This document shows, one piece after another, positions 3,025 through 63,928 of a DNA stretch of 64,000 nt. The stretch's first letter is position 1. Each line of letters opens with the position of its first letter. The notes below the pieces were generated by a model. That model made no database searches. It worked only from the letters and a program-made list of their open reading frames with translations, and was not told where the DNA came from. Made by a program: the position numbers and the translations under genes. The DNA comes from an uncultured Clostridium sp. (GTDB lineage: Bacteria > Bacillota > Clostridia > TANB77 > CAG-508). The DNA is taken from positions 128,031-192,030 of the forward strand of contig CAMJCT010000001.1 of the NCBI GenBank assembly GCA_946404215.1, given 5' to 3'.

Positions 3025-3070
3025 TTTTTGGGTGTTTTTGAAAGGTGTCCCCAAAAACACCTAAAAAACA
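3025..3070 (-). repeat. REP-like element (GGTGTCCCC orientation), 5' flank of RAYT
   Basis: TTGGGTGTTTTTGAAAGGTGTCCCCAAAAACACC, an inverted copy of the 2119 element. Confidence 0.7.
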
Positions 3071-3146
3071 TTGAAATAAGAATTAAATAATGTTAAAATA
3101 TATTTATGATTTTTTATGACAATAAATAATATAAATACAATAACAA

Positions 3147-3182
3147 TGGTGCTTTTTTAATGTGTCCCCAAAAGCACCTAAA
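3147..3182 (-). repeat. REP-like element, second copy 5' of RAYT
   Basis: GGTGCTTTTTTAATGTGTCCCCAAAAGCACC. It overlaps the spurious N-terminal extension (MSPKAPKTEQ) of the ATPase ORF in the track. Confidence 0.7.
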
Positions 3183-3194
3183 ACGGAGCAAAAT

Positions 3195-5567
3195 ATGAAT
3201 GAAAATATAATAAGATATACACCTAAAATTGATAAAGGGTTAAATGATGAACAAATAGAAAAAAGAAAAGAAGAAAATTTGATAAATTTAGATACCTGTC
3301 CACCAACTAAAAGTATAAAACGAATTTTATATGAGAATTTTTTTACATTATTTAATATTTTAAATATAGTTTTAGCATTATTAGTTTTTAGTGTTGGCTC
3401 ACGAAAAAACATGCTTTTTTTATTAATAGTTACAATAAATACAGCAATAAGTACAGTACAAGAAATTCATTCCAAAAGAATAATAGATAAGCTTTCTCTT
3501 ATGTCTGTATCAAAAGCTAAAGTTATTAGAAATGGCATAAAAAAAGATGTTTCTATACATGAATTAGTTTTAGATGATATTATTGAATTAAATACAGGAA
3601 ATCAGGTTGTAACAGATAGTATAATTCAATCTGGAGAAGTGCTTGTAAATGAAGCTTTTATTACTGGAGAACCTGATAGTATATCTAAAAAAGCAGGTGA
3701 TACTATACTTTCAGGTAGTTTTATTGTTAGTGGAAGGTGTATTGCAAAAGTTGAGCATATTGGAGAAGATAATTACACTGCTAAAATCTCTAGTGGTAGT
3801 AAATATGTTAAAAAAATCTCTTCAGATATAATGTCATCTCTTTCAAAAGTTATTACATTTTTAACTTTTGCAATTATTCCTATAGGTTGTGCCCTTTTAT
3901 ATAGCCAATTAAACTTGCAAGGTATTAATTATAAAGATGCAGTTGTTCAAACTGTTGCAGCAATTATAGGTATGATACCAGAAGGGCTTGTGCTACTGAC
4001 TAGCACTGTTTTAGCTGTTAGTGTAATTAGACTTTCCAAATCTAAAGTATTAGTTCAAGAATTATATTGTATTGAAACCTTGGCAAGGGTTGACACCTTA
4101 TGTTTAGATAAGACTGGTACTCTTACAGAAGGCTCCATGGAAGTGAAGGATTATATTGCAATAAGTAAAGACAAAGATGAAGTTTCAAATATATTATCAA
4201 ATATAGCAAAAGTTTCAGAAGATGAAAATAGCACGATTGAAGCAATTAGAAGTTATTTTACAGATATAACTTCTGAATTCACACCAATTACAAAAGTCGC
4301 GTTTTCTTCTCAATCAAAATGGTCTGGTTACTCTTTTGAGAATAAGGGTTCTTATATAATAGGAGCTCCTGAATTTGTTTTAAAAGACAATTTTAGTGAA
4401 TATAAAAATACTATTAATAACTATACGGAAGACTTCCGTGTTTTGGTACTAGCACACTCTCCAAATAATTTTAAAGACAAAAACCTGCCACAAAATATCC
4501 AATTAATTGGATTAGTTCTTATTTTAGATAAGATTAGAAGCAAAGCTCGTACCACATTAAATTATTTTGATAAACAAGGTGTAGATATAAAAATAATTTC
4601 TGGAGATAATCCTGTTACTGTTTCCAAAATTGCAAAACAAGTTGGTGTAAAAAGTTTTGATTCATATATAGATATGTCAAGTTTAAAAGAAGAATGTTAC
4701 AATTTAAATGAAATAGTTTCTAAATATACAATTTTTGGTAGAGTATCACCTACTCAAAAAAAAGATTTAATAAGAGCCTTAAAATTTAATGGCAAAACAG
4801 TTGCTATGACTGGTGATGGTGTAAACGATGTTTTAGCACTAAAAGAATCAGATTGTAGTATTGCAATGGCAAATGGTAGTGATGCAGCTAAAAATGTATC
4901 TCAATTGGTTCTTTTAGATTCGAATTTTGCCTCTATGCCTAAAGTAGTTACTGAAGGAAGACGAACAATAAATAATATACAAAGGTCTGCATCATTATTT
5001 TTAGTAAAAACAATATATTCCTGTGTTCTTGCAGTATTTTTCTTATTCCTTGCCCAAGAGTTCCCTTTCATACCTATACAATTAAGCTTAATAAGCACTG
5101 CATGTATTGGAATACCATCATTTTTGCTAGCATTAGAGCCAAATAAAGAGAAAATTAAAGGTAATTTTTTAAAAAATGTTATATCTAAAGCTATGCCAAC
5201 AGCCATTACTGTTATAATGAATATTTTATATTTAACATTTTTAAGCAAATACAATTTAATAACTATTGACTGCTATCATAGTTTATGTGTGGTTTCTACT
5301 GGTGTTTGTGGTCTTACTTTATTATTCACACTTGCATTAAAAAGAAAAAGTGAAAAAATAAAATTGCCTTTCTCCATATATAGATTAACACTAGCAATTC
5401 TAATGACATTGTTATTCTTCTTGGAAATACACTTTTTAGGTTGGTTTTTTAATATAGTACCTTTACAACTAATTTGGGATAAAATTATAAGAATTGTTAT
5501 TGTTTCTGTTTTAAACTTTATAGTTTTAAATTTTGTATTTATGAAATTTTTGAAAATAGATAAATAA
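3195..5567 (+). CDS. Cation-transporting P-type ATPase (P2-type, Ca2+/Mg2+-like)
   Basis: DKTGTLT phosphorylation motif and TGDGVNDVLALKESD hinge. N-terminal cation-ATPase domain and multiple TM segments. The start was moved to ATG 3195, which follows a GGAG RBS; the track start at 3162 translates the REP. Confidence 0.85.
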   Translation: MNENIIRYTPKIDKGLNDEQIEKRKEENLINLDTCPPTKSIKRILYENFFTLFNILNIVLALLVFSVGSRKNMLFLLIVTINTAISTVQEIHSKRIIDKLSLMSVSKAKVIRNGIKKDVSIHELVLDDIIELNTGNQVVTDSIIQSGEVLVNEAFITGEPDSISKKAGDTILSGSFIVSGRCIAKVEHIGEDNYTAKISSGSKYVKKISSDIMSSLSKVITFLTFAIIPIGCALLYSQLNLQGINYKDAVVQTVAAIIGMIPEGLVLLTSTVLAVSVIRLSKSKVLVQELYCIETLARVDTLCLDKTGTLTEGSMEVKDYIAISKDKDEVSNILSNIAKVSEDENSTIEAIRSYFTDITSEFTPITKVAFSSQSKWSGYSFENKGSYIIGAPEFVLKDNFSEYKNTINNYTEDFRVLVLAHSPNNFKDKNLPQNIQLIGLVLILDKIRSKARTTLNYFDKQGVDIKIISGDNPVTVSKIAKQVGVKSFDSYIDMSSLKEECYNLNEIVSKYTIFGRVSPTQKKDLIRALKFNGKTVAMTGDGVNDVLALKESDCSIAMANGSDAAKNVSQLVLLDSNFASMPKVVTEGRRTINNIQRSASLFLVKTIYSCVLAVFFLFLAQEFPFIPIQLSLISTACIGIPSFLLALEPNKEKIKGNFLKNVISKAMPTAITVIMNILYLTFLSKYNLITIDCYHSLCVVSTGVCGLTLLFTLALKRKSEKIKLPFSIYRLTLAILMTLLFFLEIHFLGWFFNIVPLQLIWDKIIRIVIVSVLNFIVLNFVFMKFLKIDK

Positions 5568-23367: not shown

Positions 23368-24270
23368 TTAGAACAAATTTGCTCCACTTCCTTTTATAAA
23401 TCTACAAATTTGGTCCCACTGGCATCCCCATACCATTCTTGACTCAACATTTTCATTTGAAAAACTTTTACATGCTTTATATAAATTATACCAATCTGTT
23501 TTATTCATTACTGTTCCTGGTTTTACTTGTGGGTTATTACTTGAATCTTTTCCTAACTCGTATTTTCCTACATAAAATCCGCCGTTTTCTCTTACGCTAT
23601 CTATCATTTCTTTATAATCATCTTTTAACTTTGTTGACATATCTGCTAAATCTCCAAATGCAGCTTGTGTACGATAAGTTTGATCTGTATCATATAAAGA
23701 TATAACATCTGGTTCCCTATAATATGGATCTGCTGTTGTTCCAGGAGTTGTTCTATCTAATGTTCTACTTCCTAATGTTGTTCCTAATGTTCTATATTTT
23801 GTTACAACGTCATTTGGCTCGGCCGTCCCTAGCATTGTCCAACCTGTAGTATTTTCTTCATACATTAATGCTAAGTCAGATGAACTTACAGGAATCCATA
23901 CCCATTGATTTCCACTTGCATCTGTTACAACTAACCCATTTTCTATTGTTGTTTCATCTTTTTCCACTACTCCTGTTGTTTCATTTACTACTTTTACATC
24001 TGATACTGTAAAACCTGCTGGTATTACTGCTGTATAATTTCCAGAAATATATACTGCATTTGAATCGTTTGGTGCAGTTTCTCCTTGTCCTATTAAATTT
24101 TCTATGATATCTCCTTCTTCTGTAACTCCATATTTATGTCCATTACCATATGTTACTTTTACTGGAAAACTACTTGATGTTGCTTCTGCTGAAGCATCAC
24201 TTATATTTTTATTTATATTATTTACAACTTTACTTGCTACTAAATTTCCTCTTTTATCATATGCCCCCAA
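23368..24270 (-). pseudogene. Truncated paralog of the prepilin/FGE-domain gene (middle region plus start of FGE/SUMF1-like domain), cut off by the MITE
   Basis: NQWVWIPVSS and FYVGKYELGKD match SYFVWIPRYAY and GFWVAKYEMSQ of the 543-aa protein at 28191. It has no prepilin N-terminus. The FGE domain ends after ~70 aa at the MITE boundary. Confidence 0.5.
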
Positions 24271-26602: not shown

Positions 26603-27798
26603 TTACTTATAATCTTCAAATATACCTACTATTCTATCTTTATTTGGATTTGTTATTAAAGTATTCATTTTTATTCCTGCAATATTTACAAATTCTTTAT
26701 ATTCGTCATCTGGAATATCATTTCCTATAAGATTAAATACTGGTATTTTTGTATCTAATTGCTCTTTTGATTTTTTTATTATATCAAGTCCGTTCATATC
26801 TGCAAAGTTATAATTTGTAAATACCATTTCTGGCTGTAAATTAACTATTCCTTTATATGTGTCTGTTCCGTTATTTGTTACGCCAACAACATCAACATAT
26901 CCTAAACCTTTTATTGTATCTACAATTTCATTTCTTACTTTATCATCTTTATATGCTACTAATGTTCTAATCTTTTCAAATACTTTTTTAGCAGATGCTT
27001 TAATTGTTGTTCTATTCTTTAATAATTCTGTTATACTATCTTCTAAAACATTTCCTATACAAACATCTTCTCCGTTTTCTGTAACCATTATATTACCATT
27101 TGGCATAATTAGAAGATATTTGCTTTCCATATCTGGCTCTTCTCTAAATTCTACTTTACCAATATTAGATGCTGTTCCCATACATAAACATATAGTTTTT
27201 ATCATTTTAAATTCTGCTTTTGATATTTCAAATTCTTTTTCATTTAATTTTGCTGTTTCTCGAAGTGGTATAAATTTAAAAACTCTCCAAGCATTTATTC
27301 TATATTTTCCTAAATATTGTCCAAGTTCTTCAATAGCCTCTAAATTCAATCTATTTACAACAGTATTTATATTAACTTTTAAATCATATTCTCTTAATGC
27401 CTCTAATACCACACTTATATCTTTGACATGGTCATACCCTCTACCAAGTTTTTCATTTATATCATTATCAACTGCATCAATAGATAATGTTAAACTATCT
27501 ATATAGTTAAATATTTCTCTCATTTTAGAATTATTTGCAAGTAAAGAACCATTTGTTATAAGTTTGCATTTCATTCCTCTTTCACTAGCCATTTTTAAAA
27601 GTTCAAAAAAGTTTGGCTGTAATAATGCCTCTCCAGTGTAAATGTTATATTTTTTATTCCGTCTTCTGTAATTCTATCAAGTATTCTTTTATTGTCTTCA
27701 AAGTTTAGTTCATTGATACCTAAAAATCTATGACAATATCTGCATTGTTGATTACATCTTAAAGTTAAAAACCAACAAACTTCTCTATTTTCACTCAT
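26603..27798 (-). CDS. Radical SAM / SPASM-twitch enzyme fused to a C-terminal receiver-like (REC) domain, interrupted by a frameshift (~27635, not at CGG)
   Basis: N-terminus CWFLTLRCNQQCRYCH (CxxxCxxC). After ITFT the frame changes to GEALLQPNFFELLKMASERG... The SPASM/twitch cysteines are KTICLCMG...GEDVCIGN. The C-terminal ~115 aa run LVAYKDD...VFTNYNFADMNGLDII...IPVFNLIG...IAGIKMNTLITNP, which aligns to the CheY fold with the phospho-acceptor position occupied by Asn. Confidence 0.55.
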
Positions 27799-27990
27799 TA
27801 CAAAATCCTCTTTTCTAATTATTTTACATAATAATTATATATCCGTTTCCAATATTTGTCTATCATCAAAAAGTTAACTATCGTAAACCTAAAAAGACAT
27901 AGACCTTTTACGATCTATGTCTTAAAATATATTATATTATTTCATTTATTATTACTTCTTCAAGTAATCTTTTATAAATTGTTTATCCAT

Positions 27991-28347
27991 TATTGTAATT
28001 GCCCCCGCGTTTGAAGAATGGATTACTCGAATTGACGAAGTAGGCGTAGTAGTAGTCTAATCCCTAATAACCCCTAAAAGAACAGGGGCTAACCTAATAT
28101 TCAAAATGTTTGCCTCCAACTCTAGCAAGAGAACTTTCCCATTTACTGCAAAAGAAAAAGGGGCAAAGCCCCAAGGAAAGTCTCAAAGTGCTACGGGCAA
28201 AGCACCGCACGGAACGAAACGTCGCTGTAGCTAACACCACCGCTGCCGCCCGAAGAGAACACACCTGCGCCGGCTCCAACATCGAAACTGCCCCCGCGCC
28301 CGACAAACGGGCCACTCGCGTAGCAAAGGTGAGGGTAGTCTCCAAAC
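27991..28347. other. Compositionally anomalous GC-rich segment (~50-55% GC in a ~27% GC context)
   Basis: Covers the last ~50 codons of the prepilin/FGE gene (GGC CCG TTT GTC GGG CGC GGG GGC...) plus ~200 bp downstream, which contains two GC-stem hairpins (GGGGCAAAGCCCC; CCCCTAAAAGAACAGGGG). Overlapping ORFs 28094..28345(-) and 28110..28376(+) are composition artefacts. Confidence 0.8.
28148..28174 (-). terminator. GC-stem hairpin plus U-run immediately 3' of the prepilin/FGE gene
   Basis: Minus strand CCTTGGGGCTTTGCCCCTTTTTCTTTT. Confidence 0.6.
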
Positions 28348-46805: not shown

Positions 46806-46906
46806 TGTTACTGGTCGTTACTAGTCAGCCTATCGTTATTTTAATGCCCGCGCCAGTGATTACTATATAAATATTTTGAGAATTTATCGAATGCGACTGG
46901 TATAAC
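46806..46906. repeat. MITE-like element, copy B (partial; the 3' arm is replaced by the rny terminator)
   Basis: Shares GTTACTGGTCGTTACTAGTCAGCCTATCGTTATTTTAATGCCCGCGCCAGTGATTACTATATAAATATTTTGAGAAT with copies A and C. Confidence 0.5.
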
Positions 46907-63874: not shown

Positions 63875-63915
63875 TTTTGGGTGATTTTGGGGACACCTTA
63901 AAAAAACACCTAAAA
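63868..63915 (+). repeat. REP-like element at the 3' end of gatD
   Basis: GGGTGATTTTGGGTGATTTTGGGGACACCTTAAAAAAACACC. Confidence 0.65.
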
Positions 63916-63928
63916 AAAATTTAAAAAA

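Follow-up and report, generated by a model that had tools for sequence, protein, structure and literature searches.

A single GC-rich patch in the 64-kb stretch of DNA analyzed here (the window) very probably marks where a cassette of a diversity-generating retroelement (DGR) ends downstream, in which the variable region (VR) was rewritten by the retroelement before a 5.39-kb deletion removed the reverse transcriptase (RT) gene, the Avd gene, and most of the template repeat (TR). The patch (27986..28347, minus strand) is the sole region of at least 50% GC in the window and has three parts: the VR, a spacer, and a TR stub. A DGR variable region, probably a remnant, was the reading favored by the initial annotation of this DNA. 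It is borne out by adenine-only mismatches, an IMH followed by a hairpin, hypervariable ends among homologues, the protein fold, and RT and Avd genes beside the same gene in syntenic relatives.

Sliding windows over the 64 kb confirmed the abrupt change in composition described earlier. With 150-nt windows, GC rose from 0.21-0.30 to 0.43-0.59 between ~28000 and 28375, and 100-nt windows gave a peak of 0.65 within the patch. Windows of at least 50% GC started only at 28126..28276 in the entire stretch, for which mean GC was 28%. On the coding strand, the last ~50 codons (~150 nt) of the target gene contained 9.9% A with a GC3 of 0.62, compared to 41% A and a GC3 of 0.12 in the gene body. These codons had been described as GC-ending and adenine-poor, and the C-terminal peptide and two inverted repeats quoted with them were likewise all found in the sequence. 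An Rfam scan of the window returned only a T-box, with no match inside the patch.

The VR (28186..28338, minus strand; encoding ..YPHLCYASGPFVGRGGSFDVGAGAGVFSSGGSGGVSYSDVSFRAVLCP*) was delimited by gapless alignment to the TR of a related locus, L095 (NCBI GCA_900521985.1, contig ULNH01008544.1). The two sequences differed at 28 of 153 nt. All 28 mismatches fell on TR adenines, of which there are 43, and none on the 110 other positions (Fisher p 4e-20). Relative to this TR, the substitutions comprised 20 A>G, 6 A>T, and 2 A>C, spanning 28331 to 28219. A template with mismatches confined to adenines had been named among the checks of a DGR origin, and the syntenic L095 locus provides one of the cognate type. 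While the L095 TR has a GC content of 48%, that of the window VR is 63%, and the excess equals exactly 22 A>G/C changes. These changes on a 48%-GC template fully account for the GC spike of the patch.

This accounting bears directly on whether the patch could be foreign DNA, acquired or gene-converted from a GC-rich organism and unrelated to retroelement mutagenesis. Such an origin would fit the abrupt composition boundary and the signs that the 3' part of the gene has recombined. However, the whole block is homologous to cassettes of the same low-GC clade, every difference from the template lies at an adenine, the GC excess is explained base for base, and exact searches of the viral collection gave 0 matches. 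We consider this origin extremely improbable. The horizontally acquired GC-rich patch put forward in the initial annotation is thus discarded in favor of a sequence native to the low-GC clade. A phage origin likewise lacks support, as exact searches of viral contigs gave no match and the context of the cassette in two related loci, L090 and L095, is conjugative (PrgI, TraG, sortase).

The VR ends in an IMH-like invariant stretch of 33 nt (TCGTTCCGTGCGGTGCTTTGCCCGTAGCACTT; 28186..28218, minus strand), in which VR and TR are identical and which holds the stop codon (28193..28191). Divergence begins right past it, with TGAGAC in the VR versus CGATAC in the TR. The IMH occurs once in the window, 0 times in shuffled sequences at up to 3 mismatches, and in identical form in L004, L006, L009, L091, L092, L094, and L095. 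An exact search of viral contigs with its 32-mer yielded 0 matches. These features agree with the earlier description of an A-depleted VR with a GC-rich IMH and a hairpin next to it.

A terminator scan and a DNA fold both located this hairpin, GGGGC-TTT-GCCCC followed by TTTTTCTTTT, at 28150..28172 (minus strand). It corresponds to the first of the two inverted repeats (GGGGCTTTGCCCC, 28172..28160) and has a 5-bp GC stem. Together with its T-run it fits the intrinsic-terminator consensus. In the DNA fold it sits inside an outer stem (28184..28175 / 28140..28129), and its position is that of the DGR target hairpin or cruciform. The hairpin could serve as a cruciform, a terminator, or both. It is kept in six related loci, where it follows the VR in L009 and L094 and also in L004, L091, and L092, and relatives carry compensated stems (GGGCC/GGCCC and GGTCC/GGACC). 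A GC-rich inverted repeat past the IMH is present in about a third of DGRs, and efficient homing of the Bordetella phage BPP-1 DGR requires one (PMC5758913). On the target side, the window thus combines adenine-only VR/TR differences, an IMH, a GC inverted repeat, a C-type-lectin/FGE fold, and hypervariability among homologues. Among loci of this DGR clade in the GTDB genome collection, the GC hairpin is clear in only some, again with compensated stems.

Intact cassettes in related loci supplied the reference for what is missing from the window. L095 is syntenic and intact, with target, VR, spacer, and TR followed by convergent RT and Avd genes. In L009 the order is target, VR, stop codon, the same spacer, a full TR of ~155 nt, ~300 nt of intervening sequence, and an RT on the opposite strand. 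L094 holds Avd, RT, TR, spacer, VR, and target. Comparison of each VR to its own TR placed 14 of 14 mismatches at TR adenines in L094 and 15 of 15 in L095. The RT lies ~300 nt past the TR in L009, L094, and L095 and is also present in L006; Avd overlaps the start of the RT gene in L006, L094, and L095. The RTs of related loci match PF00078 and carry the motifs IGNYTSQ and YMDD, while their Avd scored 88.7 bits on NCBIfam NF033474 (DivGenRetAVD; cutoff 80). L006 was set aside as an intact reference, being the L094 locus with VR and TR collapsed or fused.

Cassettes of this type are common among the uncultured low-GC Clostridia of the gut. The GTDB genome collection contained 201 stretches with tblastn-confirmed relatives of the RT, from uncultured Clostridia, 'Clostridium sp. 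CAG:389', and similar organisms. Among the 80 GTDB loci kept, more than 50 had an adenine-biased TR/VR pair in the layout RT-> <-TR <-VR. Location of TR and RT on different strands and of targets away from the RT are recognized DGR variations (PMC5758913). The TRs of the GTDB loci were too diverged to be accepted as the cognate template of the window VR.

The spacer between VR and TR (28058..28185, minus strand; 128 nt, ~130) was defined by comparison of the window, L009, and L095, and opens with the terminator-like GC hairpin. Its proximal ~45 nt (to ~28141) match cassettes of the L095/L091/L092 type, and its distal part matches the L009 type. This type switch points to a crossover near 28141|28140. 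The second inverted repeat quoted earlier (CCCCTGTTCTTTTAGGGG, 28088..28071) lies within the spacer. It is absent from L094 and L095, which have a promoter-like TTGACC-18-TATTAT in its place, and was dropped as a functional element for want of conservation in these loci. In ~40 GTDB loci (e.g. L020 11603..11722, L025, L029, L037), the VR-TR spacer carries the conserved motifs ..CCTTG..CCCTTT(T)ATTCGGCAC.. and, ~30 nt on, ..AAATACGGG... They may act in cis, either in the TR transcript or in recognition of the target. The subfamily of the window seems to have an internal deletion in this motif region.

Beyond the spacer lies a TR stub of 72 nt (GACTACTACTACGCC...GGCAATTACAATAATGGA; 27986..28057, minus strand), with 100% identity to the 5' part of the full L009 TR. 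It comprises the first 72 nt of a repeat that measures ~155 nt in intact loci, so that the TR of the window is incomplete. The stub would translate as DYYYAYFVNSSNPFFKRGGNYNNG, with AAY codons exactly where close homologues vary. Aligned to the local VR copy, 11 of 14 mismatches in the 3' 44 nt of the stub fell on stub adenines (counted by eye on the alignment), while its first ~30 nt matched the window VR poorly. Similarity of the stub to the coding block ends abruptly at 27986. The stub was found by low-stringency blastn and missed by a generic direct-repeat search; exact searches of the viral and GTDB genome collections with the TR core gave 0 matches.

Identification of the stub revises two statements of the initial annotation. 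The GC-rich tail placed after the hairpins does exist, at 28057..27986, but it is a truncated template repeat and had not been recognized as such. Absence of RT, Avd, and template repeat from the window had also been stated. For the first two this holds, as the 64 kb contain no YxDD ORF and tblastn with the RT and Avd of a related locus gave E values of at least 0.12. For the template repeat it does not, given the stub.

Comparison to L095 placed a deletion junction at 27985..27986, where 5.39 kb are absent from the window (L095 11766..17153). Three blastn blocks frame this gap: L095 8189-10776 corresponds to window 31575-28942 (91.6% identity), L095 10910-11765 to window 28832-27986 (89%), and L095 17154-20867 to window 28001-24294 (93.4%). 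Besides RT, Avd, and the 3' part of the TR, the lost segment holds five further genes, namely a MutS_I fragment, an ORF of 112 aa, and those for a response regulator, an HTH protein, and a LysR protein. The junction itself (..GGCAATTACAATAATGGA|TAAACAATTT..) shows an imperfect microhomology of ~16 nt.

Along the minus strand of the window, the L095 gene order is T4SS genes, the 468-aa gene, the 111-aa gene, target with VR, spacer, and TR. Past the TR follow RT(-), Avd(-), the MutS_I fragment, four more genes, radical-SAM, AAA_14/DUF4143, a 92-aa ORF, and a 75-aa ORF. Synteny between the two loci covers the radical-SAM, AAA_14, 92-aa, and 75-aa genes past the deletion and, on the opposite flank, the 111-aa and 468-aa genes. 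The neighbors that travel with the cassette upstream (30589..31575, by blastn) are the 111-aa ORF (30589..30924, plus strand) and a 3' remnant of the 468-aa gene. Homology to L006, L090, L094, and L095, at 90-92% identity over 31575..28942, stops at 31575, and mutS is next.

Genes on both sides of the cassette differ from their counterparts in related loci. Only the 3' third of the 468-aa gene (30966..31644) is present, split into 169-aa and 75-aa ORFs and beginning at a new 5' end. Here the T4SS genes that lie upstream in L090 and L095 are missing, with mutS directly following the 468-aa remnant. Past the deletion, the radical-SAM gene (26603..27798, minus strand) has lost 1 nt at ~27640 (ACA CT GGA, versus ACA GGT GGA in the intact 403-aa ORF of L095) and is thereby divided into ORFs of 67 and 329 aa. 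The split is a further sign of local decay.

The truncated cassette is also of mixed origin. Its L095/L091/L092-type portion comprises the VR with the preceding ~260 nt and the initial ~45 nt of the spacer, and its L009-type portion the distal spacer with the TR stub. The L009-like stub thus belongs to a different subtype from the L095-like TR that wrote the VR, and the locus is a mosaic. Most likely, cassettes or paralogous targets recombined or underwent gene conversion to give this mosaic. A possible alternative is a metagenomic mis-join in the ~50-nt stretch common to both types. The length of downstream cassette retained varies among related loci, from none in L001 to ~20 nt in L007, ~55-95 nt in L092 and L091, the spacer and 60 nt of TR in L004, and the spacer and 72 nt of TR in the window. 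These graded remnants would fit repeated duplication, recombination, and decay.

The window derives from a metagenome-assembled genome, and repeats shared by VR, TR, and paralogous cassettes can mislead assemblers. The truncated TR, the mosaic, or both might accordingly be assembly artifacts. L006 evidently represents the L094 locus with VR and TR collapsed, the contigs of L090 and L093 break off at the VR, and the spacer changes type at the end of the stretch common to both cassette types. In contrast, a k-mer mis-join would need more than the imperfect ~16-nt microhomology seen at the deletion junction. The sequence on either side is collinear with L095 (91-93% identity), and the TR of L004, from an independent sample, is truncated 12 nt away. 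On balance, an artifact seems improbable.

Our data suggest the following course of events for the preferred reading of a cassette rewritten and then truncated. In the intact cassettes of L095, L094, and L009, the gene of a pilin-like surface protein ends in the VR, followed by the GC hairpin, a ~130-150-nt spacer, and a same-strand TR, with RT and Avd encoded convergently ~300 nt past the TR. The TR RNA is reverse-transcribed with misincorporation opposite adenines, and the cDNA replaces the VR up to the invariant 3' IMH. The window VR is very probably a product of such rewriting, mostly A>G, giving the 63% GC spike. A later 5.39-kb deletion at 27986|27985 took the TR 3' part, RT, Avd, and five neighbor genes, leaving the 72-nt stub. 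The T4SS side of the element has likewise been lost, and the adjacent radical-SAM gene is frameshifted. The anatomy, adenine-specific pattern, homologue hypervariability, fold, synteny, and deletion behind this course are shown by the data. Weighing against it are the difference in subtype between stub and VR and the frameshift of the target gene described below.

The protein encoded by the target gene is consistent with this role. The gene body (28191..30040, minus strand) is open in frame from ~30040, and the listed ORF (28191..29822) encodes 543 aa; gene callers start the body at ATG 29756. A 73-aa ORF of the same gene (29980..30201, minus strand) encodes a prepilin-type leader with a Pfam N_methyl match. 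The C-terminal 269 aa of the target form a C-type-lectin/FGE fold bearing the VR in an AF2 model built with 86 homologues (pLDDT 93, pTM 0.91); an earlier model (33 sequences, 353 aa) was set aside because its pLDDT was 50. Foldseek of the 269-aa model returned as best PDB match TaqVP (5vf4; E 9.6e-9, probability 1.0), followed by FGEs, Mtd (1yu0), and TvpA (2y3c). By sequence, the Pfam FGE-sulfatase match of the window protein remained below threshold (19.8-20.7 bits, cutoff 23.3), a match was found in 10 of 33 homologues, and PDB searches with the target protein gave sub-threshold matches only. The model thus places the VR on the classic DGR scaffold, and the FGE/C-type-lectin C-terminus assigned by the initial annotation is upheld, with a DGR variable protein as its best fold match. 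That annotation had also taken a 300-aa ORF (23368..24270, minus strand) for a truncated FGE-type paralogue. This ORF shares only a GFxVxKYE motif with the target (BLASTP E 0.14) and has no Pfam match, and the assignment is unsupported.

Leader and body lie in different frames. Three-frame translation revealed a +1 frameshift at ~30033, which by homology to unshifted relatives is one extra base at CGG ATT A|GAA GAA. The same shift was present in 10 of 10 related loci examined, down to 72% identity, including L001, L004, L006, L008, L009, L090, L091, L094, and L095. From the shift to the first ATG, ~92 codons are open and contain in-frame 6- and 9-nt indels. In most GTDB relatives, the type IV prepilin leader is in frame with the target. 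The shift could reflect programmed +1 frameshifting, a leaderless product, or an old shared pseudogene.

The target protein has more than 7,500 database relatives. Its closest homologues (70-85% identity) share the scaffold ..D.P.LC.A..PF..RGG....GA.AGVF.S.....G.......SFRAVLCP with scattered variable positions. Hypervariability among these homologues (P0001, P0005-P0025) is confined to the last ~45 residues, with near identity before the VR, in keeping with the C-terminal variability that the initial annotation had proposed to look for. For example, P0001, which is identical to the window protein, matches P0005 in all 80 residues before the VR, while ~19 of 46 residues differ inside it. P0002 equals the window protein up to ..GGAWEY and then continues in another type of C-terminus. 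P0005, P0242, and P0243 form a near-fixed VR lineage of three records, with one residue different in the block. In L001, the gene directly after the P0012 target (11923..12696) encodes another pilin-leader protein. Its 3' end is locally GC-rich and A-poor, especially at 12560..12640 (..SRSVDVSSDRAYFDVGSYGVRPVVEL..), and this gene is a possible further type of diversified target.

As the 64 kb, part of a 259-kb contig, contain no RT or Avd, we infer that the cassette can no longer diversify itself in this genome. The VR would then stand as a frozen record, barring action in trans by another copy. In BPP-1, an IMH and hairpin suffice to turn a heterologous gene into a DGR target (PMC3240598). 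Both elements are intact in the window, and a second DGR copy could therefore still act on the VR. A complete DGR of this family, located at another genomic site, would in that case supply TR RNA, RT, and Avd and rewrite 28331..28219, making the VR a live orphan target. The window IMH and hairpin are identical to those of functional cassettes, and the VR was written by an L095-type TR rather than one of the type of the adjacent L009-like stub. Relatives in housekeeping contexts have VRs with no RT within 10 kb (L001, L007, L008, L092), and remote targets and trans action are documented for DGRs (PMC5758913; PMC8144416). However, no RT, Avd, or full TR is present in the 64 kb, the cluster of the window protein has a single member, and the mosaic is equally explained by gene conversion from an already diversified paralogue. 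We therefore regard a live target as unlikely, and a frozen remnant as clearly the more likely state of the locus.

A broader proposal joins an orphan acceptor that is still rewritten in trans to the shuffling of diversified VR cassettes by recombination among paralogous pilin-like genes and to a conserved +1 frameshift that gates export of the diversified protein. Taken together, this combination is doubtful. If it held, a VR of one TR subtype beside a stub of another would be a trace of rewriting in trans.

The frozen remnant that we favor is a deletion-inactivated DGR of a known kind, lacking RT, Avd, and a full TR. The system as such works like the DGRs of BPP-1, Treponema, and Thermus. 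The prototype, the BPP-1 DGR (mtd-avd-TR-brt), shares with it the adenine-specific rewriting of VR from TR at the C-terminus of a C-type-lectin-fold protein, a GC-rich IMH that closes the VR on its 3' side with an inverted repeat, likewise GC-rich, after it, and, in the related loci, Avd and a DGR-type RT (PMC3240598, PMC5758913). Unlike BPP-1, the TR here directly follows the target and RT-Avd are on the opposite strand. BPP-1 is phage-borne, whereas the element here is chromosomal or ICE-associated with a type-IV-pilin-like target, and in the window the deletion has taken RT, Avd, and over half of the TR.

The TvpA DGR of Treponema denticola, which has scattered remote targets, resembles the window family in its FGE-type C-type-lectin fold, with TvpA (2y3c) among the fold matches, and relatives of the window gene are also found without an adjacent RT. 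The Treponema clade has an accessory of HRDC architecture, whereas the window family has Avd, and no RT is known for the window locus within its 64 kb. TaqVP of Thermus aquaticus, the best structural match of the modeled C-terminal domain, has 17% sequence identity, no pilin-type leader, and an unrelated host. Bacteroides DGRs on type V pilus adhesins have been examined for ICE residence (bioRxiv 10.1101/2024.11.15.621889). They similarly diversify the adhesive or tip part of a pilus-type protein in a gut commensal, and the conjugation genes that adjoin the cassette in L090 and L095 (TraG, PrgI, sortase) are a further likeness. Phylum, pilus system, and cassette architecture differ, the leader here being that of a type IV prepilin (N_methyl).

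DGR architecture, remote targets, and enrichment in gut Firmicutes are already on record (PMC5758913, PMC8144416), and the locus does not change what is known of how DGRs work. It does offer a base-resolved case of DGR decay, in which a microhomology-type deletion through the TR spared the VR, IMH, hairpin, and TR stub. It also confirms that, in an AT-rich genome, an anomalous base composition over just a few hundred bases can be recognized as a trace of DGR mutagenesis. Surveys that rely on an adjacent RT miss such loci (PMC8144416), and annotation pipelines would label the gene an ordinary hypothetical protein. The related loci constitute a large DGR family whose diversified targets are type-IV-pilin-like proteins of uncultured gut Clostridia; its loci often adjoin conjugation genes, and as far as we found it has been little described.

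The window contains other repeats. A dispersed family of short palindromic repeats (GGGTGYTTTTGGGGACACC.. and its complement), REP- or MITE-like, occupies at least 7 intergenic sites, with copies at 2127-2167, 3031-3102, 3148-3219, 37556-37596, 37632-37703, 52242-52282, and 63879-63919. A relatively GC-rich direct repeat of 56 nt (GTTACTGGTCGTTACTAGTCAGC..GCCCGCGCCAGTGATTA), with no Rfam match, is present at 9969-10024 and, 37 kb apart, at 46807-46862 with 91% identity. At 53595..56035 lies a tandem pair of sequences, 1251 nt in period and 71-75% identical, presumably duplicated paralogous genes.
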